DNA of 64,000 nucleotides from positions 1,760,001 through 1,824,000 of the forward strand of contig CAVWVQ010000003.1 in assembly GCA_963758525.1 (NCBI GenBank), in the 5' to 3' direction. Below, piece after piece: positions 26,649 to 43,040 of this stretch. Every line of letters starts with the position of its first letter. Position 1 is the stretch's first letter. The notes beneath the pieces are model-generated. The model ran no database searches and was not told where the DNA came from. It saw only the letters and a list, made by a program, of their open reading frames with translations. A program made the translations under genes and the position numbers. Source of the DNA: an uncultured Phycisphaerales bacterium (GTDB lineage Bacteria > Planctomycetota > Phycisphaerae > Tepidisphaerales > Tepidisphaeraceae).

Positions 26649-26761
26649 CCCCGCTTGCGGGGTGTGTCCAGCGGCGCAATCCCCGAAAACGCGCAGTTCC
26701 GTGCTCCCCGCTTGCGGGGCGTGTCCAGCGGCGCGATCCCCGAAAACGCGCAGTTCCGTGC
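26649..26761 (+). repeat. Tandem duplication with a 57-bp period, containing palindrome CCCCGCTTGCGGGG
   Basis: Units start at 26649 and 26706 and differ at 2 positions. Confidence 0.85.
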
Positions 26762-27589: not shown

Positions 27590-28084
27590 CTACCCCTCGG
27601 CGGCATCCGCGAACGCGACGTTGCCGGGATGAATGTCGAGCAGCGTGAAGCCGGTTGCCAGCCGGAACATCTCGGCGACGTGTAATGCGTCGTCCAACCG
27701 ATCGCCGAACATCTCGCGCATGCGCTCCTGATGCTCGGCTACGATCTCTGCGTCAAAATCCGGGACCTGATTTGGCCGTTTCGCCCCGGCGAAATCCAGC
27801 ACGAACGGCCGCTCAACGATCGTCATCTCGATGGCAAGTAACGCATCATCAAAATCGAGGAGCTTGGGAACATTGTGGTCCGCGATGCGCCGCGTTCCTT
27901 TGGCAGACAGAATCAGATAAACTTCCAGTTCACGCTCAAATCGCTCGCGCCGGTCAAAGAATTTAACGGCACTGAACCGATCTGAGCGCAACACGAAGCC
28001 GTCTTGTCCTGGTCCCGACCCCAGGAAGCCCTGCAGTTGGCAATTGTACCGCGAGGTAAAAACGGCTATTCGAGGATCGACCAT
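27590..28084 (-). CDS. Small protein-kinase-like protein
   Basis: GSGPGQDG loop, AVK, ERELEVY, VLDFAG, LDIHPGNV; GGAGGG RBS. Confidence 0.65.
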   Translation of the reverse strand: MVDPRIAVFTSRYNCQLQGFLGSGPGQDGFVLRSDRFSAVKFFDRRERFERELEVYLILSAKGTRRIADHNVPKLLDFDDALLAIEMTIVERPFVLDFAGAKRPNQVPDFDAEIVAEHQERMREMFGDRLDDALHVAEMFRLATGFTLLDIHPGNVAFADAAEG

Positions 28085-28361
28085 GGAACCCTCCCTCAAA
28101 TCCCCAACGCCCCGCGCCGGCTCGCCATGGACCTATGCATCGCTCGCCGTGATAGACGGCCAGCGATGCCTGAAGCCGGCGCAGGTGGGACCGGATCATC
28201 TGCTGTTCTCCAAGCCCCCTCGCCTGACAGGCGAGCGGATCGAGATCATCCTCCAAAACGGCGACGAAGAGCAACGCAGCTTCGCCAATGTCCTCCCGCA
28301 TCCCGCCGATGCCACGATGATACCAATTCAGCTTCTGATACCCAGCCAAAGCCCATCGTGA
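28083..28361 (+). CDS. Small hypothetical beta-rich protein (92 aa)
   Basis: GAGG RBS, ATG at 28083; AQVGPDHLLF..P motif. Confidence 0.55.
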   Translation: MEPSLKSPTPRAGSPWTYASLAVIDGQRCLKPAQVGPDHLLFSKPPRLTGERIEIILQNGDEEQRSFANVLPHPADATMIPIQLLIPSQSPS

Positions 28362-28376
28362 GAATTTCTTCTCGCG

Positions 28377-28484
28377 ACGGACGTGGGGCCGCGTTCGGAT
28401 GAACGCGGAAGTTCGCAATTGGCCCGGGAAACTTCCCTCGGTGGCATAGCTTCAATGGAGCCGCGCGCGTGAAGGGGCGGAAAT
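28377..28484 (-). CRISPR. Antisense one-spacer mini-array with two diverged repeats (candidate crRNA-like regulatory RNA)
   Basis: R1 28484-28449 ATTTCCGCCCCTTCACGCGCGCGGCTCCATTGAAGC; 36-nt spacer 28448-28413; R2 28412-28377 ACTTCCGCGTTCATCCGAACGCGGCCCCACGTCCGT. Confidence 0.85.
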
Positions 28485-28908
28485 CGTGGGCTCCTTGTGG
28501 GTCGCGACCGCAATTCGCCACGAAAATAAATCGCTGCACCGGACAATTCCCACTGAACCACTGTTGTCAGTGACGCTTGGTAGAAGCAGTCAACGGCAAA
28601 CGCTGAACGCGCCCCGTTTAGCCGGTGGGCACCTGTCTTGAGCGAAGTCGAAAGGATGCCCGCCGTGTCGCCGCAGGCGAACCCCCCCCCTGTCGCGAGT
28701 ACGGAAAATGTTTGGTGAACGGTTTGCGGCTCGATAACGTACGCCTGCTCACATCGGGGGAACTCAAGAAGTACCCCGACCGAGCCGGAGGCCAGGGTGG
28801 CCGAAGCTCCGCACTATCGGGGCGACGCGCGGAACGAGCGAATTATGCCAATGAGCGAATGAGTGGAACACTCGTCCGCGTGACGGTTTGACTGCAAAGG
28901 GCGGCCAA

Positions 28909-31572
28909 ATGACCCCGGAACAATTCAGGATCGTGTTCAAGCAACTGACCGACAACCGGCCATTTCCATGGCAAGAGGCGCTCTACGAGCAATTCATCTC
29001 AGATCGGCCTGACAACATCCCCGCGTCGTGTAACATCCCTACGGGATTGGGGAAAACCTCCGTCATCGCAATCTGGCTGATCGCGCTTCTGAACCATCCT
29101 GCCAAGATGCCGCGCCGTCTCGTCTACGTCGTCAATCGACGGACGGTGGTGGACCAGACAACAACAGAAGTCGAAAAACTTCGTGAAAACCTGCCGAAAT
29201 TGAAATCTTCTCTGAACGCTCTGGCGATCAGCACACTGCGTGGTCAATTTGCCGACAACCGCGAATGGTCCGCCGACCCTTCTCGCCCGGCAGTGATATG
29301 TGGGACGGTGGACATGATCGGTTCGCGATTGCTGTTTAGCGGATATGGCATTGGTCGAAACAGCAAACCGCATCATGCGGGTCTGTTGGGGCAGGATGTG
29401 CTGCTCGTGCATGATGAAGCCCATCTTGAGCCGGCATTTCAGGAGTTGCTTCTTTCGATTGAGAAACAACAAAGCGAGCTTGAGCGGACAGCCCTTCCCT
29501 GGCGCAAACTACGAGTGATGGAGCTTTCCGCCACTTCCCGCAGCGGAGGCGAAGTTTTTGAACTTACGGAAGCCGAGAAGACGCCACCAAATCCGCTACC
29601 CGATAGCCCTTCAGATCCGATCCACTTTGCGTGGCTTCGACTCAGTGCAAAGAAAGGCATCAAGCTGATCCCGGTTACAAGGAATCTTGTTGCCGCGACG
29701 ATCGGCAGCATCGCTCTCGACCGTTGGAAGTCCTCCGGTAAAGCAATCCTGATTTTCGTACGCTCCATCGATGACGTAAAGGCCGTCCGTGCGGAGTTAA
29801 CCAAGAAGATGATCGGCGTTCCCGATGACCAAGTTCAAATTCTCACAGGCACGAAGCGCGGCTTGGAACGAAATCGGTTGGCGACGGATGACGCGGTCTT
29901 CGCTCGTTTTCTTCATTCTCCGATTGCCACTCCCAAGTCTGGAACTGTGTACCTGATCAGCACATCAGCCGGGGAGGTGGGGGTGGACCTTTCGGCCGAC
30001 CATCTTGTCTGCGATCTGACTCCACTTGATAGTTTCATGCAGCGCCTAGGACGCGTCAATCGTCGGGGTTTCGGCGCCGCGGAGGTTGATGTTATCTATG
30101 AATCGAATCCCGACCCGAAGCCCAGATCGCCAAAGTTTGAGGCGGCGCGTCTGAAAACTCGCGACGTTCTTGCCACTCGTCTCGTCAAAGCGGATTGGAT
30201 TGAGGACCGACTGGATGGATCGCCGCTCGCGCTTCGCGGGCTAAACCTCAGCGATCTTGAGCGTGACGAAGCGTTCACACCCAAGCCAAGGATCGTACCC
30301 GCGACTGAAATCGTGTTCGATTCCTGGTCACTCACAACGATCAAGCATGAATTTCCCGGTCGGCCGCACGTCGAACCATACCTGCATGGGATCGCGGATT
30401 GGGATCCTCCACAAACCCAGGTCGCCTGGCGCGAGGAGGTTGGAGTCATCACCGCAGGCCTGCTGGGCGAATACGAGCCGTCCGATCTTCTCGAATACTA
30501 CCCGCTCAAGCCGCATGAATGGCTCACCGACCGCTCGGACCGCGTATCGAAAGAACTTGCCGACATCGCAGATCGGAACAACGGTCAATTTGCCGATACG
30601 CCCGTGTGGCTCGTGGATGGGACGGGCGCAGTTAATGTCGTCAGGCTTGGAGAGCTCGCCGACAAACAGAGGAAAGGCCAAATCGAAGGTCGGACCGTCC
30701 TGCTTCCGCCCATGGTTGGTGGACTGACGGGTGACGGAATGTTGGATGGGAAATCACCGTCTGCAAATGACGTGGCCGACGAATTCAAGGTCGAGGTGAA
30801 GAGCAATGGGATCGAATCGCTCGAAAACGGGCGTGTCCGCGTATGGGACAGCGACCCGATGCGAAGTGGAAAAGTGAAATGGATGCGCTTTATCTGCAAG
30901 ATTGTCCCGGCGTCAGAAAGTCAAAATGGTGACGAGGATTCTCCCCCGAACTCATGGCAGTGGTTCAAACGCGCCGAGGTTGGCGATACCGATGGATCAA
31001 AGGCCGCGGCCGCACCAGTCTTATGCGACGTTCACACGGCCGACGTAGTCCGCGAAACAGAGGGCTTCATCTCTCGCCTCCCCGAACTTCCCGACGCATT
31101 GAGACGGGTCCTCAAACTTGCCGCATACTATCACGATCAGGGGAAACGCCGCGAGCTGTTCCAGCGGGTGCTCGGTAACACAAATTTGTCAGTAGCGTGG
31201 GCAAAGTCCGGTGGACGGAGAACGCCCCGTGACCTTCGCACTCCGTACCGCCATGAATTCGGCTCCCTCCTGGACATCCAGCAATCCGGTGAATTCAAGT
31301 CGCTTGACACCCACGCGCAGGATCTCGTGCTGCACCTCATCGCTGCCCACCACGGCCGCGCGCGGCCTCACTTCGAAGGCGAAGAGGTTTTCGACCCGGA
31401 TCACCCCGATGACGTCGCCATCGCGTTGGCGACCGAGACGCCCCGACGCTTCGCCCGGCTCCAACGCAAGTTCGGACGATGGGGGCTAGCTTACATCGAA
31501 TCCCTGCTCCGCGCGGCCGATCACGCGGCCAGTGCATGCCCGTCGGAAACTGTGAAGGAAGATTACGAATGA
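28909..31572 (+). CDS. cas3: Type I-G Cas3 helicase with C-terminal HD nuclease
   Basis: PTGLGKT, YVVNRRTVVDQ, DEAH, SAT, QRLGRVNR; C-terminal HDQGK, RHEFGS, AAHHGRARP, RAAD. Confidence 0.96.
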   Translation: MTPEQFRIVFKQLTDNRPFPWQEALYEQFISDRPDNIPASCNIPTGLGKTSVIAIWLIALLNHPAKMPRRLVYVVNRRTVVDQTTTEVEKLRENLPKLKSSLNALAISTLRGQFADNREWSADPSRPAVICGTVDMIGSRLLFSGYGIGRNSKPHHAGLLGQDVLLVHDEAHLEPAFQELLLSIEKQQSELERTALPWRKLRVMELSATSRSGGEVFELTEAEKTPPNPLPDSPSDPIHFAWLRLSAKKGIKLIPVTRNLVAATIGSIALDRWKSSGKAILIFVRSIDDVKAVRAELTKKMIGVPDDQVQILTGTKRGLERNRLATDDAVFARFLHSPIATPKSGTVYLISTSAGEVGVDLSADHLVCDLTPLDSFMQRLGRVNRRGFGAAEVDVIYESNPDPKPRSPKFEAARLKTRDVLATRLVKADWIEDRLDGSPLALRGLNLSDLERDEAFTPKPRIVPATEIVFDSWSLTTIKHEFPGRPHVEPYLHGIADWDPPQTQVAWREEVGVITAGLLGEYEPSDLLEYYPLKPHEWLTDRSDRVSKELADIADRNNGQFADTPVWLVDGTGAVNVVRLGELADKQRKGQIEGRTVLLPPMVGGLTGDGMLDGKSPSANDVADEFKVEVKSNGIESLENGRVRVWDSDPMRSGKVKWMRFICKIVPASESQNGDEDSPPNSWQWFKRAEVGDTDGSKAAAAPVLCDVHTADVVRETEGFISRLPELPDALRRVLKLAAYYHDQGKRRELFQRVLGNTNLSVAWAKSGGRRTPRDLRTPYRHEFGSLLDIQQSGEFKSLDTHAQDLVLHLIAAHHGRARPHFEGEEVFDPDHPDDVAIALATETPRRFARLQRKFGRWGLAYIESLLRAADHAASACPSETVKEDYE

Positions 31573-32420
31573 GTAAACCCCTCACTGTCAAAGTAGATCT
31601 GACCAACCCCGGCCAGTTCTTCGCCTGCTGCGGTCTGCTGGAACTCGCCAGCAGGTTGGACACTCACGCGGAGGGTTGGTTTAAGGAGGACTCGTTTTGC
31701 GTCGCGGGACAAATTGAGGGCGTGGTAGACAAATTTCTGGCCTGCAACGTCAGTCCGATCCCGACAGAACCTTCCGCAGGCAACGACGACGATGACGCAG
31801 AAGCGGACGATGCCGCGGTGCCTAAGACTACACCGCTTCAAGTCGGACCTCCGTTTAACATTCGCCTTGACTGGTGGCGCGATCCGGCTGCGACCACGAA
31901 GGCCAAGCTCAAGACGTGGTCCGCCGGTCAGAAGGTGACCGATCTTTTCAACGGAACGACCAAGACCCGCACAACGAAGAAAGGACCAAAGGACTCCTAT
32001 CTTCCATCAATGCGTGATCATTTTCGTGATGTCGTGAAAACGCATCCGAACGACTGGCTGAGGCAGACGATCGCCACGGATTCGCCGATGCCCTACTGCT
32101 ACGACAGTCGTCTCTCGCGTAAGGCGCTACTCGACGCTGGCCACTACCGGTTCGGATTGCTGGCCTTTTCTCCGGCCGTTGACGTGCTTGTGCATGTCGC
32201 ATTTCAACGATTCCGGCCTTTGATGATCGAGCAATGGAATCGAAATCTGTATTGCACATGGTCAGTGCCCTTAACTGTTGAAATTGCATCGGTCGCGGCG
32301 CTGGGCATTATTCCTAGCCTCATCGATTTAAGTTTCGAGTTCCCAATCAAACCGTGTGACGCGGCGGGCCGGTACAAGCTCTTCGGTCATGCTCAACCTG
32401 TAAGGAAGGCACATGTCTGA
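31569..32420 (+). CDS. cas8g: Type I-G short large subunit (Cas8g/Cas8u2, Csb3-like)
   Basis: VDLTNPGQFFACCGLLELA, LDWW, KTWSAGQ, QRFRP, YCTW; lies between cas3 and cas7. Confidence 0.75.
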   Translation: MSKPLTVKVDLTNPGQFFACCGLLELASRLDTHAEGWFKEDSFCVAGQIEGVVDKFLACNVSPIPTEPSAGNDDDDAEADDAAVPKTTPLQVGPPFNIRLDWWRDPAATTKAKLKTWSAGQKVTDLFNGTTKTRTTKKGPKDSYLPSMRDHFRDVVKTHPNDWLRQTIATDSPMPYCYDSRLSRKALLDAGHYRFGLLAFSPAVDVLVHVAFQRFRPLMIEQWNRNLYCTWSVPLTVEIASVAALGIIPSLIDLSFEFPIKPCDAAGRYKLFGHAQPVRKAHV

Positions 32421-33507
32421 TTTATTGCACAAGCACGACGACCTCCTCAAGGACACCGGCCCGGCGGCCGTAGTCTTGAAGCATTGGCTCCAAGCCGTGG
32501 GCGGAGCCATATTCTTTCCTCCAACGTACGCAAACCCGTCACAGAAGAAGGGCGATCCCCCTGTATATAACATTGACCGCTTCGAAGACCCCAAGCGCTC
32601 CGTGGGTGTTGTCGATAGCATTCCCGCGCAGGCAAACCGAATCGAGCCATCACTGGGGCGAATTACCAACAACAAAGGCAAAACCGTGCGATTGGTTCCG
32701 CAAATCGTCGTTACCGCCAAGGTGAAGGATGACGACGGGAAGGATGTCTTTCAGCAAGTCAATCTTCTTGACGCCGGACATCGCGCAGCGGACGCGGTCG
32801 TGCAACTTTCCTCGCTCCGCGACGATATCACAAAGGCGATCAGGGCGAGGAGATCGGGCGATTCAAAGCCGCTTGCGAAACTCGCGCCGACCTCGCTGGT
32901 CTTCGGAATGTGGGACTCGCGGGAAAGCGGCATCAAGGTGTCGCGAATTCTGAACTCCATTATTCGGGCGTACGACGTTCTCGAATATCGCCGATCATCA
33001 CAGTTCAACGCTGCGCTCGATTATGAATCGGCGGGAGTAGCGCCGGGCAAGGGCGAAAAGAAACTTTCCGAAGTCGGCATGGACGGCGCGCCAGCCACGT
33101 TCCAGCACGGCGGGATCGAGGCACGGGGCGGAATCTGCAGAGAGGCGTCCCTTAATCTTTGCACGCTTCGAGACATCGTTACGTCAGACACCAAGGAAAC
33201 GCTCAAGCTTCAGCGCTATATCCTCGGTCTGGCTCTAGTGGCGATTACCCACTTCGACGGCAAGGCGCTGAATCTTCGCCAGGGCTGCCAGCTCGTTGGT
33301 ATTCCCGACAAGCCCATGTCGCGGCACCTCATCAAATCCGATGGCACAATCGATCCATTTGATGTCGATCGAGATGCTGCAATTGCTTATGCCAGTGCAA
33401 CAGCCGACGACTTTGGGGTCGGTGAGGATCGTCTTAATGAAACATTCGATGCCAAAGCCGCAAAAGCGGCCCTGAAGAAGAAGGAAAAAGAGGAGGCATC
33501 CACGTGA
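32413..33507 (+). CDS. cas7: Type I-G Cas7 (Csb1)
   Basis: FFPPTYA, VDSIPAQANRIE, AGHRAADA, PTSLVFGMWDSR, LRQGCQL. Confidence 0.93.
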   Translation: MSDLLHKHDDLLKDTGPAAVVLKHWLQAVGGAIFFPPTYANPSQKKGDPPVYNIDRFEDPKRSVGVVDSIPAQANRIEPSLGRITNNKGKTVRLVPQIVVTAKVKDDDGKDVFQQVNLLDAGHRAADAVVQLSSLRDDITKAIRARRSGDSKPLAKLAPTSLVFGMWDSRESGIKVSRILNSIIRAYDVLEYRRSSQFNAALDYESAGVAPGKGEKKLSEVGMDGAPATFQHGGIEARGGICREASLNLCTLRDIVTSDTKETLKLQRYILGLALVAITHFDGKALNLRQGCQLVGIPDKPMSRHLIKSDGTIDPFDVDRDAAIAYASATADDFGVGEDRLNETFDAKAAKAALKKKEKEEAST

Positions 33508-34942
33508 TCTTCCTCCTCTCCATCCGCTTCCTCGACGATCGGTACCACGGGACCACCGACAACGGCGAGAGTACCGAATGGCCGCCCTCGCCGCTTCGGG
33601 TTTTCCAGGCAATGGTCGCGGGCAACGCGCGCGGCGATCGGTTGCCCGACGTGGTACGGGACGCATTGCTCTGGCTCGAAAAGCTCGACCCGCCTGACAT
33701 CATCGCGCCGGGCGGCTGGGACGGAATGCCACTCCTGACGTATGTGCTCAACAATGTGTCGGATTCAAATTTTAATAGCCGCGCGCCTAAGACGATTCGA
33801 CCAACGATTCTGAATGGGGACCGGCTCGTTGAATACGCTTGGACATTCGATCCGTCGGCAGAGTCAGATCGCCAGATTGAGACCTTAATCGGCGCGTCGC
33901 GACATATCCGGGCGCTGGGATGGGGAATTGACCTTGCAATCGGTCATGGCGAAAGGAAGGAAGCTTCAACGCAGACTCCGCCCCACCGAAATCGTTATGT
34001 GCCGGCGCGCACCTTGACAATCGCCGGCAAGGATCGGCGGGTGCCGCGCGATGGGAGCCTCGTCTCGCTCGAGGAAACTTACCGACAATTCCTGGCGCGG
34101 TACGAAACTCCTGGAGTGACTGCGTTCGAGTCCGCTGGTGCGATTTACGACACCGTGCAATATGGAGTCGGCGCGGCGCGCCCTTGCGTCGCGTTCAAGC
34201 TGGTGAACGAGGACGGCGATACTGTCACGATCCGCCAACAGCTCATTAAACCGCTCGTTGGCATGATCCGAAATCTGGCGAATGACCCGCGCCTCGTTGC
34301 TCGATTCGGACAAGAAACGATCGACCGAGACGTCATGGGCCATCCGAAGAGCGGAACAGAAAATCGCGTCTCAATTCTCCCGCTTCCGACGATTCGCGAA
34401 GGTCCAACCGACGGTCGCATCAGAAGGGTGATGTTCGCTCAACCGGCTTCATCGGACGGTGCGCTCTGCCGCGCATTTGACACTTTATTGGATGGCGCGG
34501 CGCTGCATCCGGAAATGAATGAGACGCGTTTGCAGGGTATCCAGCTTGAACGAATCCACCGCAGAGATTCAGTGCTACGTGCGTACACCGATGAATCCGA
34601 AGTTTGGGCTTCGGTTACCCCGGTCCTGTTGCCTGGATATGACGACCGCAAGCAGCATCGTGGCAATCATGTTAAGCGGCTTGCGCGGCGGAAGAGTTAT
34701 GCCAAAAGGCTTTGGCGCAAAGCGGTCTCCCGAGAGCTAAAGATATTCAATTGTCCCGCGTTCCTTATTTCTCGGGGTCACAACACGTCCGTGACTACCA
34801 CCCGCGCGCGAAATTGAGCAACTATCCGCGCTATCACGTGCGGCTGGAATTCGAGCAGTCAATGAGCGGGCCAGTTGCGATCGGCGCGGGACAGCACACC
34901 GGCTTTGGAACTCTTGCTGTTTACGACAAGAAGGGGAGATGA
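33504..34942 (+). CDS. csb2: Csb2 (Cas5/Cas6 fusion), frameshift near 34690
   Basis: RYHG, EWPPSPLRVFQAMVA, LGWGID, WASVTPVLLP; Gly loop GPVAIGAGQHTGFG in second frame. Confidence 0.92.
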
Positions 34943-34946
34943 TGCC

Positions 34947-35873
34947 ATGCCCTCCAACGTCTCCATCACCGGTGATGACGCCCTGACGCTCGACATGGTC
35001 GGGCAATACACCTACTGCCCGCGGCGGTTCCACCTGATGTACGTGGAAGGACGCTGGGACGACAACGCCTACACGATCGAGGGACGGCACATTCATCGCC
35101 GCGTGGATCGGGTCGATCGGTTCTTGCCGGAGGCGGACGCAGAGAAGAAATCGGCCGATGATGCGGTGCGGGCGGCGGCTGCGGGTGACGAGCCGCCTGT
35201 GGTTTCGCGGTCGGTGCCGCTGGCTTCCTCGGCACTGGGACTGTCAGCGAAGCTGGACCTGGCTTCCAGCGACGGGGACGAACTCATTGCGCGGATCGCC
35301 GTCGTCGAGTCGGTGGATTCGCTGCTCGGGCTGGAGGGGAACGTCGCGCGGCAATACTTCGAAAACTTCTCCGCGATGCTCAAGCCGCGTGACTTCGACG
35401 CGGATTGGGATTTCAACTCGCGCAACCGCAGGCCACCGAAAGATCCGGTCAACGCGATGCTGTCGTTCGCGTATGCGCTGCTGGCCAAGGAATGCACCGT
35501 CGCGCTGCTGGCTGAGGGGCTGGACCCTTACTGGGGTCTTTACCGCAAGCCGCGTCATGGGAGGCCGGCGATGGCGCTGGACCTGATGGAACCGTTCCGG
35601 CCGGTCGTCGCGGATTCGGCGGTGATCACGGCCATCAACACCGGCATGGTGCGCGGCAACCATTTCACCCGCGCAGCATCCGGCTGCGCCATGAATGACA
35701 CCGGCCGCAAAGGCCTGCTCCGTGCCTATGAAGCCCGGCTCGACCAACTCGTGACCCATCCGGAATTTGACTACCGATGCTCCTGGCGATCGGTCATCCG
35801 ACTTCAGGCCCGGCTGCTCTCCCGCTGGTTGCGCGGAGACGTGCCCGAATATTCCAACCTTGTTACGCGATGA
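34947..35873 (+). pseudogene. cas4-cas1: Cas4-Cas1 fusion with large in-frame internal deletion (308 aa)
   Basis: Cas4 N-half (YCPRR, EGRHIH, KLDL) joined near 35283 to Cas1 helical domain (LLGLEG, RNRRPPKDPVNAMLSFAY, ALDLMEPFRP). Confidence 0.88.
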
Positions 35874-35879
35874 TCACCT

Positions 35880-36170
35880 ATGAACCGCCGACATCTTCTG
35901 GTTACCTACGACATCAGCGACGACAAACGCCGAACCTCCGTCTTCAACCTCCTCCAGGCGAATGGAGATCACGCCCAATACTCCGTCTTCCTCTGCCAGC
36001 TCAACAACGCGGGACTTGCGCGTCTGCAGGCGGCGCTACAGCCGATGATCCACGCGACCGAAGATCAGATTCTGATTCTGGACCTTGGCAGGGTAGAATA
36101 TTCGGAGGCGCTGGCGATGGTCACCCTCGGCCGCGCATATGCCCCGCCGATCCGAACAATGATCGTCTAG
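35880..36170 (+). CDS. cas2: Cas2
   Basis: LVTYDISDDKRR, QYSVF, DQILILDLG. Confidence 0.96.
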   Translation: MNRRHLLVTYDISDDKRRTSVFNLLQANGDHAQYSVFLCQLNNAGLARLQAALQPMIHATEDQILILDLGRVEYSEALAMVTLGRAYAPPIRTMIV

Positions 36171-36346: not shown

Positions 36347-39300
36347 CCTTCCGCGCTCATCAGAGCGCGGCACCATTGAAGCACCGTGCCACCGATCGCG
36401 TTCAGCGTGGTGACCAGCCTTCCGCGCTCATCAGAGCGCGGCACCATTGAAGCGCAATGTGTTCTATTTTTAGTTCGTCAGCGTTCATCCTTCCGCGCTC
36501 ATCAGAGCGCGGCACCATTGAAGCAATACCGCGCAGTGCCGGTTCGACTCCGGCCAGCGACCCTTCCGCGCTCATCAGAGCGCGGCACCATTGAAGCCGG
36601 TATCGCCGATCCTCCAGGCAGTTGGCGCCCGGTCCGCCTTCCGCGCTCATCAGAGCGCGGCACCATTGAAGCCTGCCCCATCTACGTCGCTCGCGTTCTG
36701 GAAGCCTTCCTTCCGCGCTCATCAGAGCGCGGCACCATTGAAGCCCGATGCGCCTGTCACGGGCATGAGGTCCGGCGTGGCCTTCCGCGCTCATCAGAGC
36801 GCGGCACCATTGAAGCCTGGAGGTAAAGGTGTCCTGCGCTCCAAGCGTTGCCGCCTTCCGCGCTCATCAGAGCGCGGCACCATTGAAGCAAGTCAACTTC
36901 TCGTTGGCCTTACGCTCAGCTTCGACCTTCCGCGCTCATCAGAGCGCGGCACCATTGAAGCGACTTCGGCCGCGCTCTTCACTGCCGACTGCTGGAGCCT
37001 TCCGCGCTCATCAGAGCGCGGCACCATTGAAGCTTGCCGGCGTTGTTGGCGCGACGAACAACGGTAAGGCCCTTCCGCGCTCATCAGAGCGCGGCACCAT
37101 TGAAGCACTTGGAACAGCCTTCATCAGCTTGTCCTGCCACGGCCCTTCCGCGCTCATCAGAGCGCGGCACCATTGAAGCCGTCGCGTTCGCGAAGTCGTG
37201 GGGATACGGCTCGCCCCCTTCCGCGCTCATCAGAGCGCGGCACCATTGAAGCACGTTTATTCTTTTGATTGACGGGCAAACTTATTCACCCTTCCGCGCT
37301 CATCAGAGCGCGGCACCATTGAAGCAATTCCCGAATCGTCCAGTCAATCGCCATCCATGCGCCTTCCGCGCTCATCAGAGCGCGGCACCATTGAAGCACA
37401 CTGATGAGCACCGGCAAGTCCACGCGCGGAGGAACCTTCCGCGCTCATCAGAGCGCGGCACCATTGAAGCTAGGGGTAGGTTGCAATGATCCGATCGGCC
37501 GCTGCGCGCCTTCCGCGCTCATCAGAGCGCGGCACCATTGAAGCAGCTGGACACCCGCGCCACCGCGGCCGAGTCGGCTGCCCTTCCGCGCTCATCAGAG
37601 CGCGGCACCATTGAAGCAGCGCGATTCTGCACCTTCGCTTCGGATGCGCCGACCTTCCGCGCTCATCAGAGCGCGGCACCATTGAAGCAAACGATGTCAG
37701 CATGTATCGTGAGGTGATGGCATTCCTTCCGCGCTCATCAGAGCGCGGCACCATTGAAGCAGCGAGATATTGCCACTGATCGAACGTTTGACGCCACCTT
37801 CCGCGCTCATCAGAGCGCGGCACCATTGAAGCCAGTCGGCCGCGTTCGATTTCGCAACCCTACCTGCCCTTCCGCGCTCATCAGAGCGCGGCACCATTGA
37901 AGCCTTGCAACAGCATCGGGAACGGTTGACGACACTTTCACGCCTTCCGCGCTCATCAGAGCGCGGCACCATTGAAGCCTGTCATCCCCCGAGCCCGACG
38001 AAGACCCCGACGTCCTTCCGCGCTCATCAGAGCGCGGCACCATTGAAGCATGCAACGAAGTTTCGGGCAGCAACTCCTCTGTCAGCCTTCCGCGCTCATC
38101 AGAGCGCGGCACCATTGAAGCCTTCCCGACGGCACCCAGTTCAGCGCGTTCCCTTCCGCGCTCATCAGAGCGCGGCACCATTGAAGCGATGCCGCGGGGC
38201 TGGGAACCCGCCGCGAGCGGCGGCCCTTCCGCGCTCATCAGAGCGCGGCACCATTGAAGCGGGATGAACAATCCGTTGCGCGAACCGGGAACGCACCCTT
38301 CCGCGCTCATCAGAGCGCGGCACCATTGAAGCATTGCCATTGGGCGTAAGGGCAAAGAGGCGACGATTACGCCTTCCGCGCTCATCAGAGCGCGGCACCA
38401 TTGAAGCACCTTCCCAAGCGTTCCATACGTTTTGCGTGCCAGCCTTCCGCGCTCATCAGAGCGCGGCACCATTGAAGCTTGACGGATTGTGACTCGTTCG
38501 TGCGTCGGCTTGGCGCCCTTCCGCGCTCATCAGAGCGCGGCACCATTGAAGCGAGACGATCGAAGGCAGGCAGTGGTGCAACGGCGTACCTTCCGCGCTC
38601 ATCAGAGCGCGGCACCATTGAAGCATTTATGGCTGAAGGACGTTGGGTTGAAATTCATGGACGCTTCCGCGCTCATCAGAGCGCGGCACCATTGAAGCTC
38701 ACGGCAGTCACTGGCCTCGGCGGTGAGTTCATCACCCCTTCCGCGCTCATCAGAGCGCGGCACCATTGAAGCATCCCGGAGTGGGCTTGGGCCACATCCG
38801 ACTTCATTGCCTTCCGCGCTCATCAGAGCGCGGCACCATTGAAGCTTGCTGTCCTCCCACACTGCGAACGCGCTTGCCAGCCTTCCGCGCTCATCAGAGC
38901 GCGGCACCATTGAAGCACGACCTGGCCGACGCGATTCTCGGCCGGGACCACGGCCTTCCGCGCTCATCAGAGCGCGGCACCATTGAAGCATCGGCGCGTC
39001 CCCGCTCGTCGTCATGGCCGTCGTTCCTTCCGCGCTCATCAGAGCGCGGCACCATTGAAGCTCGGTTCGGATCGACCCGCGCGACGCCGATATGGCTCCT
39101 TCCGCGCTCATCAGAGCGCGGCACCATTGAAGCGTGTGCCTGCCGCTGGCGTGGCCGGTGCTGTTGGCGGCCTTCCGCGCTCATCAGAGCGCGGCACCAT
39201 TGAAGTATGCCGCTTCCGTCGATGCCAACGGAGTTGACCTGCCTTCCGCGCTCATCAGAGCGCGGCACCATTGAAGCACGCTCGACGGCAACGGACTGCT

Positions 39301-39349
39301 GGAAGTGAACGTCCCTTCCGCGCTCATCAGAGCGCGGCACCATTGAAGC
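36347..39349 (+). CRISPR. CRISPR array: 42 repeats of 36 nt (CCTTCCGCGCTCATCAGAGCGCGGCACCATTGAAGC), 41 spacers
   Basis: Counted by hand; 8-bp hairpin CCGCGCTC/GAGCGCGG; spacers 35-39 nt except one of 30 nt; single-base variants at 38663 and 39206. Confidence 0.99.
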
Positions 39350-42709: not shown

Positions 42710-43040
42710 GGGGAAAGGGGGGAAGGCACGGAGGGGGGAAGGCACGCAGGGGGGAAGGCACGGAGGCACGAAGGGGGGAAGGCACGAAGGCACGGAGGCA
42801 CGAAGGGGAGGAAGGGGATGTTTGTGGCGGGCACTTGGTTCGACATAGTTGTTCCGCCGATCGCGCGGATCGTTTCAGTTGGTTGATTGAACGGCGTGCG
42901 GCTTGCGGCGTATGGAAGAGTAGGTACGAAGGCATCCGCCACGTCGGATAAACTGCGGCACGAAGGGAGGAAGTAGGATGTTTGTGCTTTAGTTGGTCCG
43001 TTGAACGGCGTGCGGCTCGGGGCGTATGGAAGAGTGGGAT
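42710..43040 (+). repeat. Purine-rich AAGGCACGG tract plus imperfect duplicated blocks
   Basis: AGGCACGnAGG repeats at 42724-42810; TTGAACGGCGTGCGGCT..GGCGTATGGAAGAGT twice (~42887, ~43001). Confidence 0.65.

Follow-up and report, generated by a model that had tools for sequence, protein, structure and literature searches.

The closest described counterparts of the element analysed here are the crRNA-like RNAs (crlRNAs) of other type I systems, summarised below from the accessible parts of the papers cited. CreA, the RNA of the CreTA and CrePA modules (types I-B and I-F), consists of two degenerate repeats around one spacer, the first repeat being the more diverged, and has a short, PAM-flanked seed match beside the -35 box of the adjacent gene (PMC9458426, 10.1101/2024.01.05.574328). 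In CRISIS, or crlRNA-supervised defence (type I-C), the crlRNA lies by the cargo genes and matches its target over about 16 bp with a mismatch at position 6; the PAM is of the TTN type, and a -35 box adjoins the target (10.1101/2024.12.27.630466). The CreR mini-arrays are antisense and upstream of the cas operon, with the 5' handle in the first repeat and the 3' handle in the second (10.1101/2023.03.10.532045, PMC10120712). The type I-G mini-arrays described below resemble each of these in the features named. They differ from CreTA and CrePA in their I-G effector and in their likely cargo, which is a kinase-fold gene paired head-to-head with a second gene where those modules have a tRNA-sequestering RNA or CreP. 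They differ from CRISIS in the divergent arrangement of the two cargo genes and in the occurrence of this pair outside CRISPR loci as well, and from CreR in that most of their targets adjoin a promoter facing away from cas, a minority looking directed at cas.

In the characterised type I-G system, as far as the accessible text of that study goes, TTN serves as the PAM, Csb2 produces an 8-nt 5' handle and remains attached to the 3' hairpin, and the guide has each sixth base flipped out (PMC9638904). Mini-arrays of type I-G (there I-U) were predicted, without being tested, in the part of 10.1101/2023.03.10.532045 that was available, and Table 1 of PMC10120712 records them in 4% of 235 I-G loci. 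The available text of 10.1101/2024.12.27.630466 mentions neither I-G nor I-U, and no kinase is among the cargo it names. Our literature search returned no paper on a type I-G crlRNA, none on a Rhodopirellula kinase with a CRISPR-Cas adaptation module, no kinase pair as crlRNA cargo and no tested I-G case; two supplements of PMC10120712 gave no match for either of the last two, and supplements that were not seen could hold such loci. A preliminary description of this DNA had stated that no characterised I-G example was known, which agrees with our search for tested cases and has to be qualified by the earlier predictions.

The mini-array and its host locus

The window, by which we mean the whole stretch of 64,000 nt that was analysed, carries on its plus strand a type I-G cas operon at 28909..36170 (cas3, cas8g, cas7 (GSU0053), csb2 (GSU0054), cas4-cas1 and cas2) and the main CRISPR array, of 42 repeats and 41 spacers, at 36347..39349. 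Its cas3 has a C-terminal HD domain, which together with cas8g, cas7, csb2, cas4-cas1, cas2 and the array places the system in type I-G. Domains encoded near by and the best hits that carry a name mark the host as a planctomycete.

The mini-array is on the minus strand and consists, in its own direction, of an upstream degenerate repeat (28449..28484), a spacer-like guide of 36 nt as read from the sequence (28413..28448) and a downstream degenerate repeat (28377..28412). On re-reading, these coordinates, the strand and the spacer sequence agree with the preliminary description, as does the character of the two repeats. The upstream repeat has an intact 8-nt handle, ATTGAAGC, at 28449-28456, and a weakened hairpin, with a predicted folding energy of -4.7 kcal/mol, compared with -15.8 kcal/mol for the array repeat and -13.4 kcal/mol for the downstream repeat. 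The downstream repeat has kept the full 8-bp stem, CCGCGTTC/GAACGCGG, with a compensatory change from C-G to T-A, and has lost the handle, of which 2 of 7 bases are left. Only one figure had to be corrected: the upstream repeat, given as 26/36 identical to the array repeat, is 25/36 identical without gaps, and so is the downstream repeat. Given the Csb2 handle and the 3' hairpin of the characterised I-G system, the parts retained are those of the mature crRNA. With two degenerate cognate repeats around one spacer outside the array, the 5' handle in the first repeat and the 3' hairpin in the second, the element has the repeat architecture of a crlRNA.

In the 6.47-Mb genome, both strands taken together, four sites outside the 42-repeat array match the repeat at 25/36 or better. 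Two of these are the mini-array repeats, exactly 72 nt apart, and the pair is therefore not a product of chance. A soil short-read contig is identical to the window over 28403-28609; since it comes from a single study, and possibly from the source material, it argues against an assembly error and nothing further. The mini-array had no match in Rfam at E values up to 1.

Two of the cas genes show changes. The cas4-cas1 fusion (34947-35873, plus strand) has an in-frame internal deletion that leaves it about 270 residues shorter than homologues of 70-80% identity, and spacer acquisition has therefore probably been lost. In csb2 a frame break at 34680-34696 on the plus strand leaves the C-terminal His motif (34883) in a different frame. 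This break was considered as proof of decay and was set aside, because frame changes are found in 8 of the 41 tested genes of the assembly, csb2 among them; it may thus be a sequencing error. Short-read contigs gave no coverage of the break site.

Upstream of cas3, at 28551-28586 on the plus strand, is a palindrome, CACTGA-N10-TCAGTG, followed by a -10-like hexamer that sits 10 nt past the TGTCAG half. The same pair of elements stands upstream of cas3 at six loci of the family, namely the window and the loci labelled L016, L017, L021, L025 and L028. HTH-WYL-type genes adjoin several of the relatives, and three full-length homologues of the WYL regulator are encoded elsewhere in the genome of the window. 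The arrangement is one that we take to resemble a PafBC-type activated promoter. This suggests that the palindrome may be the site of a WYL regulator combined with the cas promoter, and that such a regulator would activate these I-G operons. Ahead of the first cas gene, L017 and L025 (cas3) and L032 and L033 (cas7) have a small conserved ORF (family F11, 5 loci), which was not detected in the window.

The genome has a second CRISPR-Cas locus (G000:C3:3908776-3920454; L187, L188), with a 17-repeat array and a divergent WYL-type gene, which appears I-C-like when typed by eye from its repeat and gene order. It was rejected as the parent system of the mini-array, its I-C-type repeat being unlike those of the mini-array.

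The family of type I-G mini-arrays and its targets

Loci for comparison were gathered through Cas3 (14 family loci, and 20 of 21 further loci of the phylum) and through the kinase discussed below (157 loci, being the best 79 of 175 in genomes and the best 78 of at least 477 in metagenomes); a scan of genomes by Cas3 alone found nothing. A strict rule, with one manual case, gave 23 mini-arrays once three duplicates and one array end had been removed, and a looser rule added 12 more, with duplicates, second repeats and two doubtful cases excluded. The search for the same element at related I-G loci, which the preliminary description had proposed as a check, has in this way found 35 mini-arrays with the same asymmetric repeats, that of the window included, at I-G loci of Planctomycetota and Verrucomicrobiota and on unnamed contigs. 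The repeat asymmetry is partly built into the search rule; free of it are the counts of a stem of at least 7 bp in the first repeat, present in only 19 of the 35, and of the handle in the second repeat, present in only 11 of the 35. The loci of the family are kin and not independent draws. Among 87 non-redundant kinase loci, a mini-array occurs in 21 of the 31 with I-G genes, in none of the 31 long loci without I-G genes and in 1 of the 25 short ones without, as counted by a rule that detects I-G-type repeats only. Five of 33 loci picked by cas3 alone have a mini-array and a target, three of these being without any part of the kinase pair.

Targets were scored over spacer positions 1-17 minus 6 and 12, that is over 15 positions, at sites no more than 1.5 kb away. 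For 23 of the 35 mini-arrays there is a target matching 13-15 of the 15 positions, against 2 of 1148 pairs in a cross-locus control, and a TTN flank is present at 21 of the 23 targets, against 7% in the control. Among the full matches, at 15/15, are the targets of L137, L139, L093 and L104. The other 12 elements, including that of the window, have no target at 13/15. Scoring of the full 17 positions gives matches in 20-26 of 26 cases everywhere except at positions 6 and 12, each of which matches in 6 of 26; the Cascade signature is therefore not a product of the scoring. Mismatches at these two positions are expected where every sixth base is flipped out, as reported in the accessible part of PMC9638904. 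A scan blind to the repeats gave hits in 16 loci, and in 10 of them, all cas loci, the hit begins exactly after the handle. The 23 target-bearing mini-arrays fall into 12 spacer families, and their explicit guide-target pairs would extend crRNA-like regulation to type I-G. The short targets and free sixth positions may also serve as a natural recipe for I-G-based transcriptional repression.

The targets are on the strand opposite to the mini-array in 21 of 23 cases. A sigma-70-like promoter scoring at least 8/12 begins within 16 nt past the PAM, pointing toward the mini-array and kinase, in 17 of 21 cases, compared with 1 of 21 in the opposite direction (where one control stretch was empty) and 5% at random places. 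In 19 of 21 the distance from the target down to the kinase ATG is 270-727 nt, irrespective of the side of the kinase on which the mini-array lies; in L184 the target stands before the kinase although cas3 is on the far side. The crlRNAs of CrePA and Nezha are reported to have the same geometry, with a -35 box adjoining the target.

As the targeted promoter faces the mini-array and the gene pair of kinase and partner, the family looks CreA- or CRISIS-like, repressing a cargo, more than like a pure autoregulator of cas. The preliminary description had correctly seen a crRNA-like element, and had left out both the kinase/orfX pair and the promoter of the mini-array/kinase unit as its target. Its further claim, that the element is selected for regulation and is not debris, is partly supported, by the family of 35 and by the seed-plus-PAM targets in 23 of them, the best match of this copy being at background level. 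Comparison of the loci supports the view that I-G loci share a family of crRNA-like elements under selection, of which the mini-array is a member.

The kinase is not required for the RNA: in L016 and L021 no kinase was found beside the retained mini-array and target, and the kinase module is missing from L221 and L230, which do have targets. The latter two targets are TTN-flanked and match at 15/15, 159 nt before cas3 in L221 and before cas7 in L230, and their mini-arrays are candidate CreR-type autoregulators of I-G operons. In L032, L069 and L090 the target overlaps, or sits within, the mini-array's own first repeat, which would explain the lost hairpin of that repeat.

The kinase and its partner gene

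Downstream of the mini-array on the minus strand (27590..28084) is a gene for a kinase-fold protein of 164 aa. The PADLOC model ST_Kinase (PDLC01137) matches it over its whole length, with an E value of 6.9e-30; the note to that model locates the kinase in Rhodopirellula, next to an adaptation module in the vicinity of I-C systems, and mentions neither orfX nor mini-arrays nor I-G. Head-to-head with the kinase gene, the two start codons overlapping, is orfX (28083..28361, plus strand), which encodes an all-beta protein of 92 aa. The orfX family is present in 132 of the 134 kinase loci having room and a candidate ORF, and in the window, L032, L033 and L137 its stop codon is abutted by the downstream repeat.

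The model of the kinase has a pLDDT of 92.5. All 50 of its listed structural matches are kinase-fold proteins, the best with a middling Z score of 7.5 (rmsd 3.2, 122 residues aligned), and 147 sequences share residues K41, E52, D97, D150 and N155 without exception. In canonical kinases the catalytic loop comes first and the DFG-type motif after it. Here a DFA motif stands ahead of the DxxxxN catalytic loop and the chain stops just past that loop, and from this reversed order we infer a rearranged minimal kinase. Neither the kinase of the window nor orfX fell into a Pfam family, the kinase alignment matched no PHROG, and no sequence match to a solved structure was found below an E value of 0.03. 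Two weak leads point to an anti-phage or abortive activity of the cargo, a match to the PD-T4-6 model (E 0.002 across 59 residues) and an atlas cluster with Phage_T7_kinase in 23% of its members (score 0.92). The model of orfX is a small beta barrel (pLDDT 83) whose best Foldseek matches are PilZ domains at E values of 0.1-0.5, with none at 0.001, a faint hint that the fold may be PilZ-like.

In 31 long loci the kinase pair occurs without CRISPR, mostly among housekeeping neighbours (42 neighbour proteins were scanned). This is not what an unguarded toxin predicts, unless orfX neutralises the kinase. The closest kinase-orfX pair among the loci collected (72%; L109:1118-2830) adjoins a Cas10 gene, and no mini-array was seen there.

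The kinase is likely to be the regulated cargo of the mini-array, judging from the arrangement of the targets. On balance we think it somewhat probable that the one-spacer I-G mini-array gives rise to a Cascade-loaded RNA that represses the kinase, and that in this copy, with its weak match, the control has loosened or lapsed. Transcription from the sigma-70 promoter would run through the mini-array, antisense through orfX and into the kinase, or through the kinase first and the mini-array next. Cleavage of the repeats by Csb2 would leave an RNA of about 72 nt, made up of the 8-nt handle, the 36-nt guide and the 3' hairpin. With this RNA, Cascade would bind about 17 bp beside the -35 box, too short a match for cutting, and RNA polymerase would be blocked; the kinase would be released once Cascade is lost or inhibited. 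Because orfX is head-to-head with the kinase, the kinase mRNA from the targeted promoter would run antisense over orfX.

On this basis we tentatively hypothesise that type I-G Cascade in Planctomycetota and Verrucomicrobiota may restrain an undescribed anti-anti-CRISPR module, in which a kinase of 160 residues with a moved DFG-like motif and a PilZ-like partner are switched together, such that inhibition of Cascade would turn the kinase on and the partner off in one step. If so, a crRNA-like repressor would be joined to an antisense switch in one module, and if the kinase arrests growth upon inhibition of Cascade, CRISPR immunity would have a safeguard built on a kinase. The minimal, rearranged kinase and its antisense partner gene would be a new candidate cargo, kinase cargo not having been found among the crlRNA papers searched. 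The value of the observations rests on the family and its cargo more than on the copy in the window.

The copy in the window and alternative explanations

The best local match to the spacer of the window is partial and of uncertain status. It is at 28841..28860 on the plus strand (called here the 28844 site), 65 nt before the ATG of cas3, and has an AAT flank. It matches at 13/17 or 11/15, with positions 1-7 perfect and mismatches at 8, 9, 13 and 17, and it overlaps CATAAT, a weak -10-like sequence of the minus strand. Its shuffle P is 0.008-0.07 within a region fixed beforehand, where it exceeds chance expectation. Across the genome, which is about 91% complete, no TTN-flanked site stands above chance, the best among the matches listed being 13/15 at C3:4951836, about chance level. 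There is no promoter of 9/12 in window positions 28000-29000, and no self-matching protospacers from which to read the PAM in this genome; a search of 401 genomes for the PAM gave, among the matches listed and 27 rows aside, array-type matches only.

Comparison with the relatives gives a simple account of this. In L017, L021 and L137, the stretch from the mini-array to the palindrome before cas3 contains a target, a -35 box and a sigma-factor-like gene. In the window only about 67 nt separate the mini-array from the palindrome, a junction that is spanned by two short-read contigs, and the target, -35 box and sigma-factor-like gene are absent beside the mini-array. The simplest reading is that one deletion removed promoter and target together. 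Any lapse would be recent, as the kinase, orfX and the features of the repeats are intact. In our analysis the 28844 site was at first taken as the target of a cas3 autorepressor, a reading that was downgraded once the relatives showed real targets.

It is also conceivable, if rather doubtful, that this copy is active, its RNA guiding Cascade to the 28844 site with AAT as PAM and repressing either a minus-strand promoter of the mini-array and kinase or, in the manner of CreR, the cas3 leader. The site is intergenic and upstream, its seed is perfect at positions 1-7, it has the orientation of 21 of the 23 family targets, and the CATAAT box that it overlaps ties for the best promoter score (8/12) on the minus strand. 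The low end of the shuffle range, 0.008, is for 13/17, and a perfect first five plus 11/15 gives 0.009. A good target in L085 shares the double mismatch at 8-9, and AAN is recorded as an I-G PAM in one genus in the accessible part of PMC8482600. The Cas8g of the window is on a long branch, in a tree of 15 rows that does not include L017, and its closest homologue, from L017 (43%), also goes with a non-TTN flank (GTG). Against this, 11/15 is reached by 399 of the 1148 control pairs and, in the same region, by 5 of the 41 ordinary array spacers, with 13/17 reached by 1 of the 41; and its mismatches at 8, 9 and 13, with 6 and 12 paired, are the reverse of the family signature. The site moreover comes after the inferred cas promoter, which the targets of L017, L021, L137 and L139 do not, and csb2 is broken in the assembly, possibly in error. 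A weakened or lapsed control, for which the shortened cas4-cas1 also speaks, is thus the likelier state of this copy. It is very improbable that the element is a remnant of an old array, or that its hairpin has survived solely to terminate orfX. The downstream repeat at the orfX stop codon in four loci and the lack of a convincing target in the window would fit such an origin, but a terminator needs no handle, no 36-nt spacing and no PAM-flanked target, the reverse asymmetry occurs once, as a poor match, among 87 loci, and the target statistics of the family (23/35 against 2/1148) are far from chance.

The remaining alternative concerns the whole family, which might chiefly regulate cas or the small sigma-factor-like gene and limit its own transcription, with the kinase pair as a passenger of a hotspot. 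Several loci point this way: the target is no more than about 45 nt from where cas3 is estimated to start in L178, L104, L093 and L096, lies between two divergent near-consensus promoters (read by eye) in L173, is on the other strand in L090, L069 and L230, and in L221 and L230 is complete with the kinase absent. In L016 (2069-2452), L017 (9238-9753), L021 (2897-3304) and L137 a short, divergent sigma-70 region-4 gene follows the target, before the cas promoter. CreA itself represses the divergent creT and cas8 promoters together, according to the available part of 10.1101/2023.03.10.532045. We nevertheless consider this explanation improbable for the family as a whole, because the promoter motifs point toward the mini-array and kinase in 17 of 21 cases and away in 1, and because mini-arrays occur in 21 of the 31 I-G loci with the kinase pair against 3 of the 30 cas3-picked loci without any part of it. 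Repression of the kinase as cargo remains our preferred reading, with CreR-type autorepression of cas plausible in L173, L221, L230 and the tight divergent loci, and dual control of cargo and cas likely, on our analysis, in some loci.

Finally, at 42710-42813 and 26649-26761 the window has, in intergenic DNA, a purine-rich tract with a repeat period of 8 nt and a tandem duplication of 56 nt.
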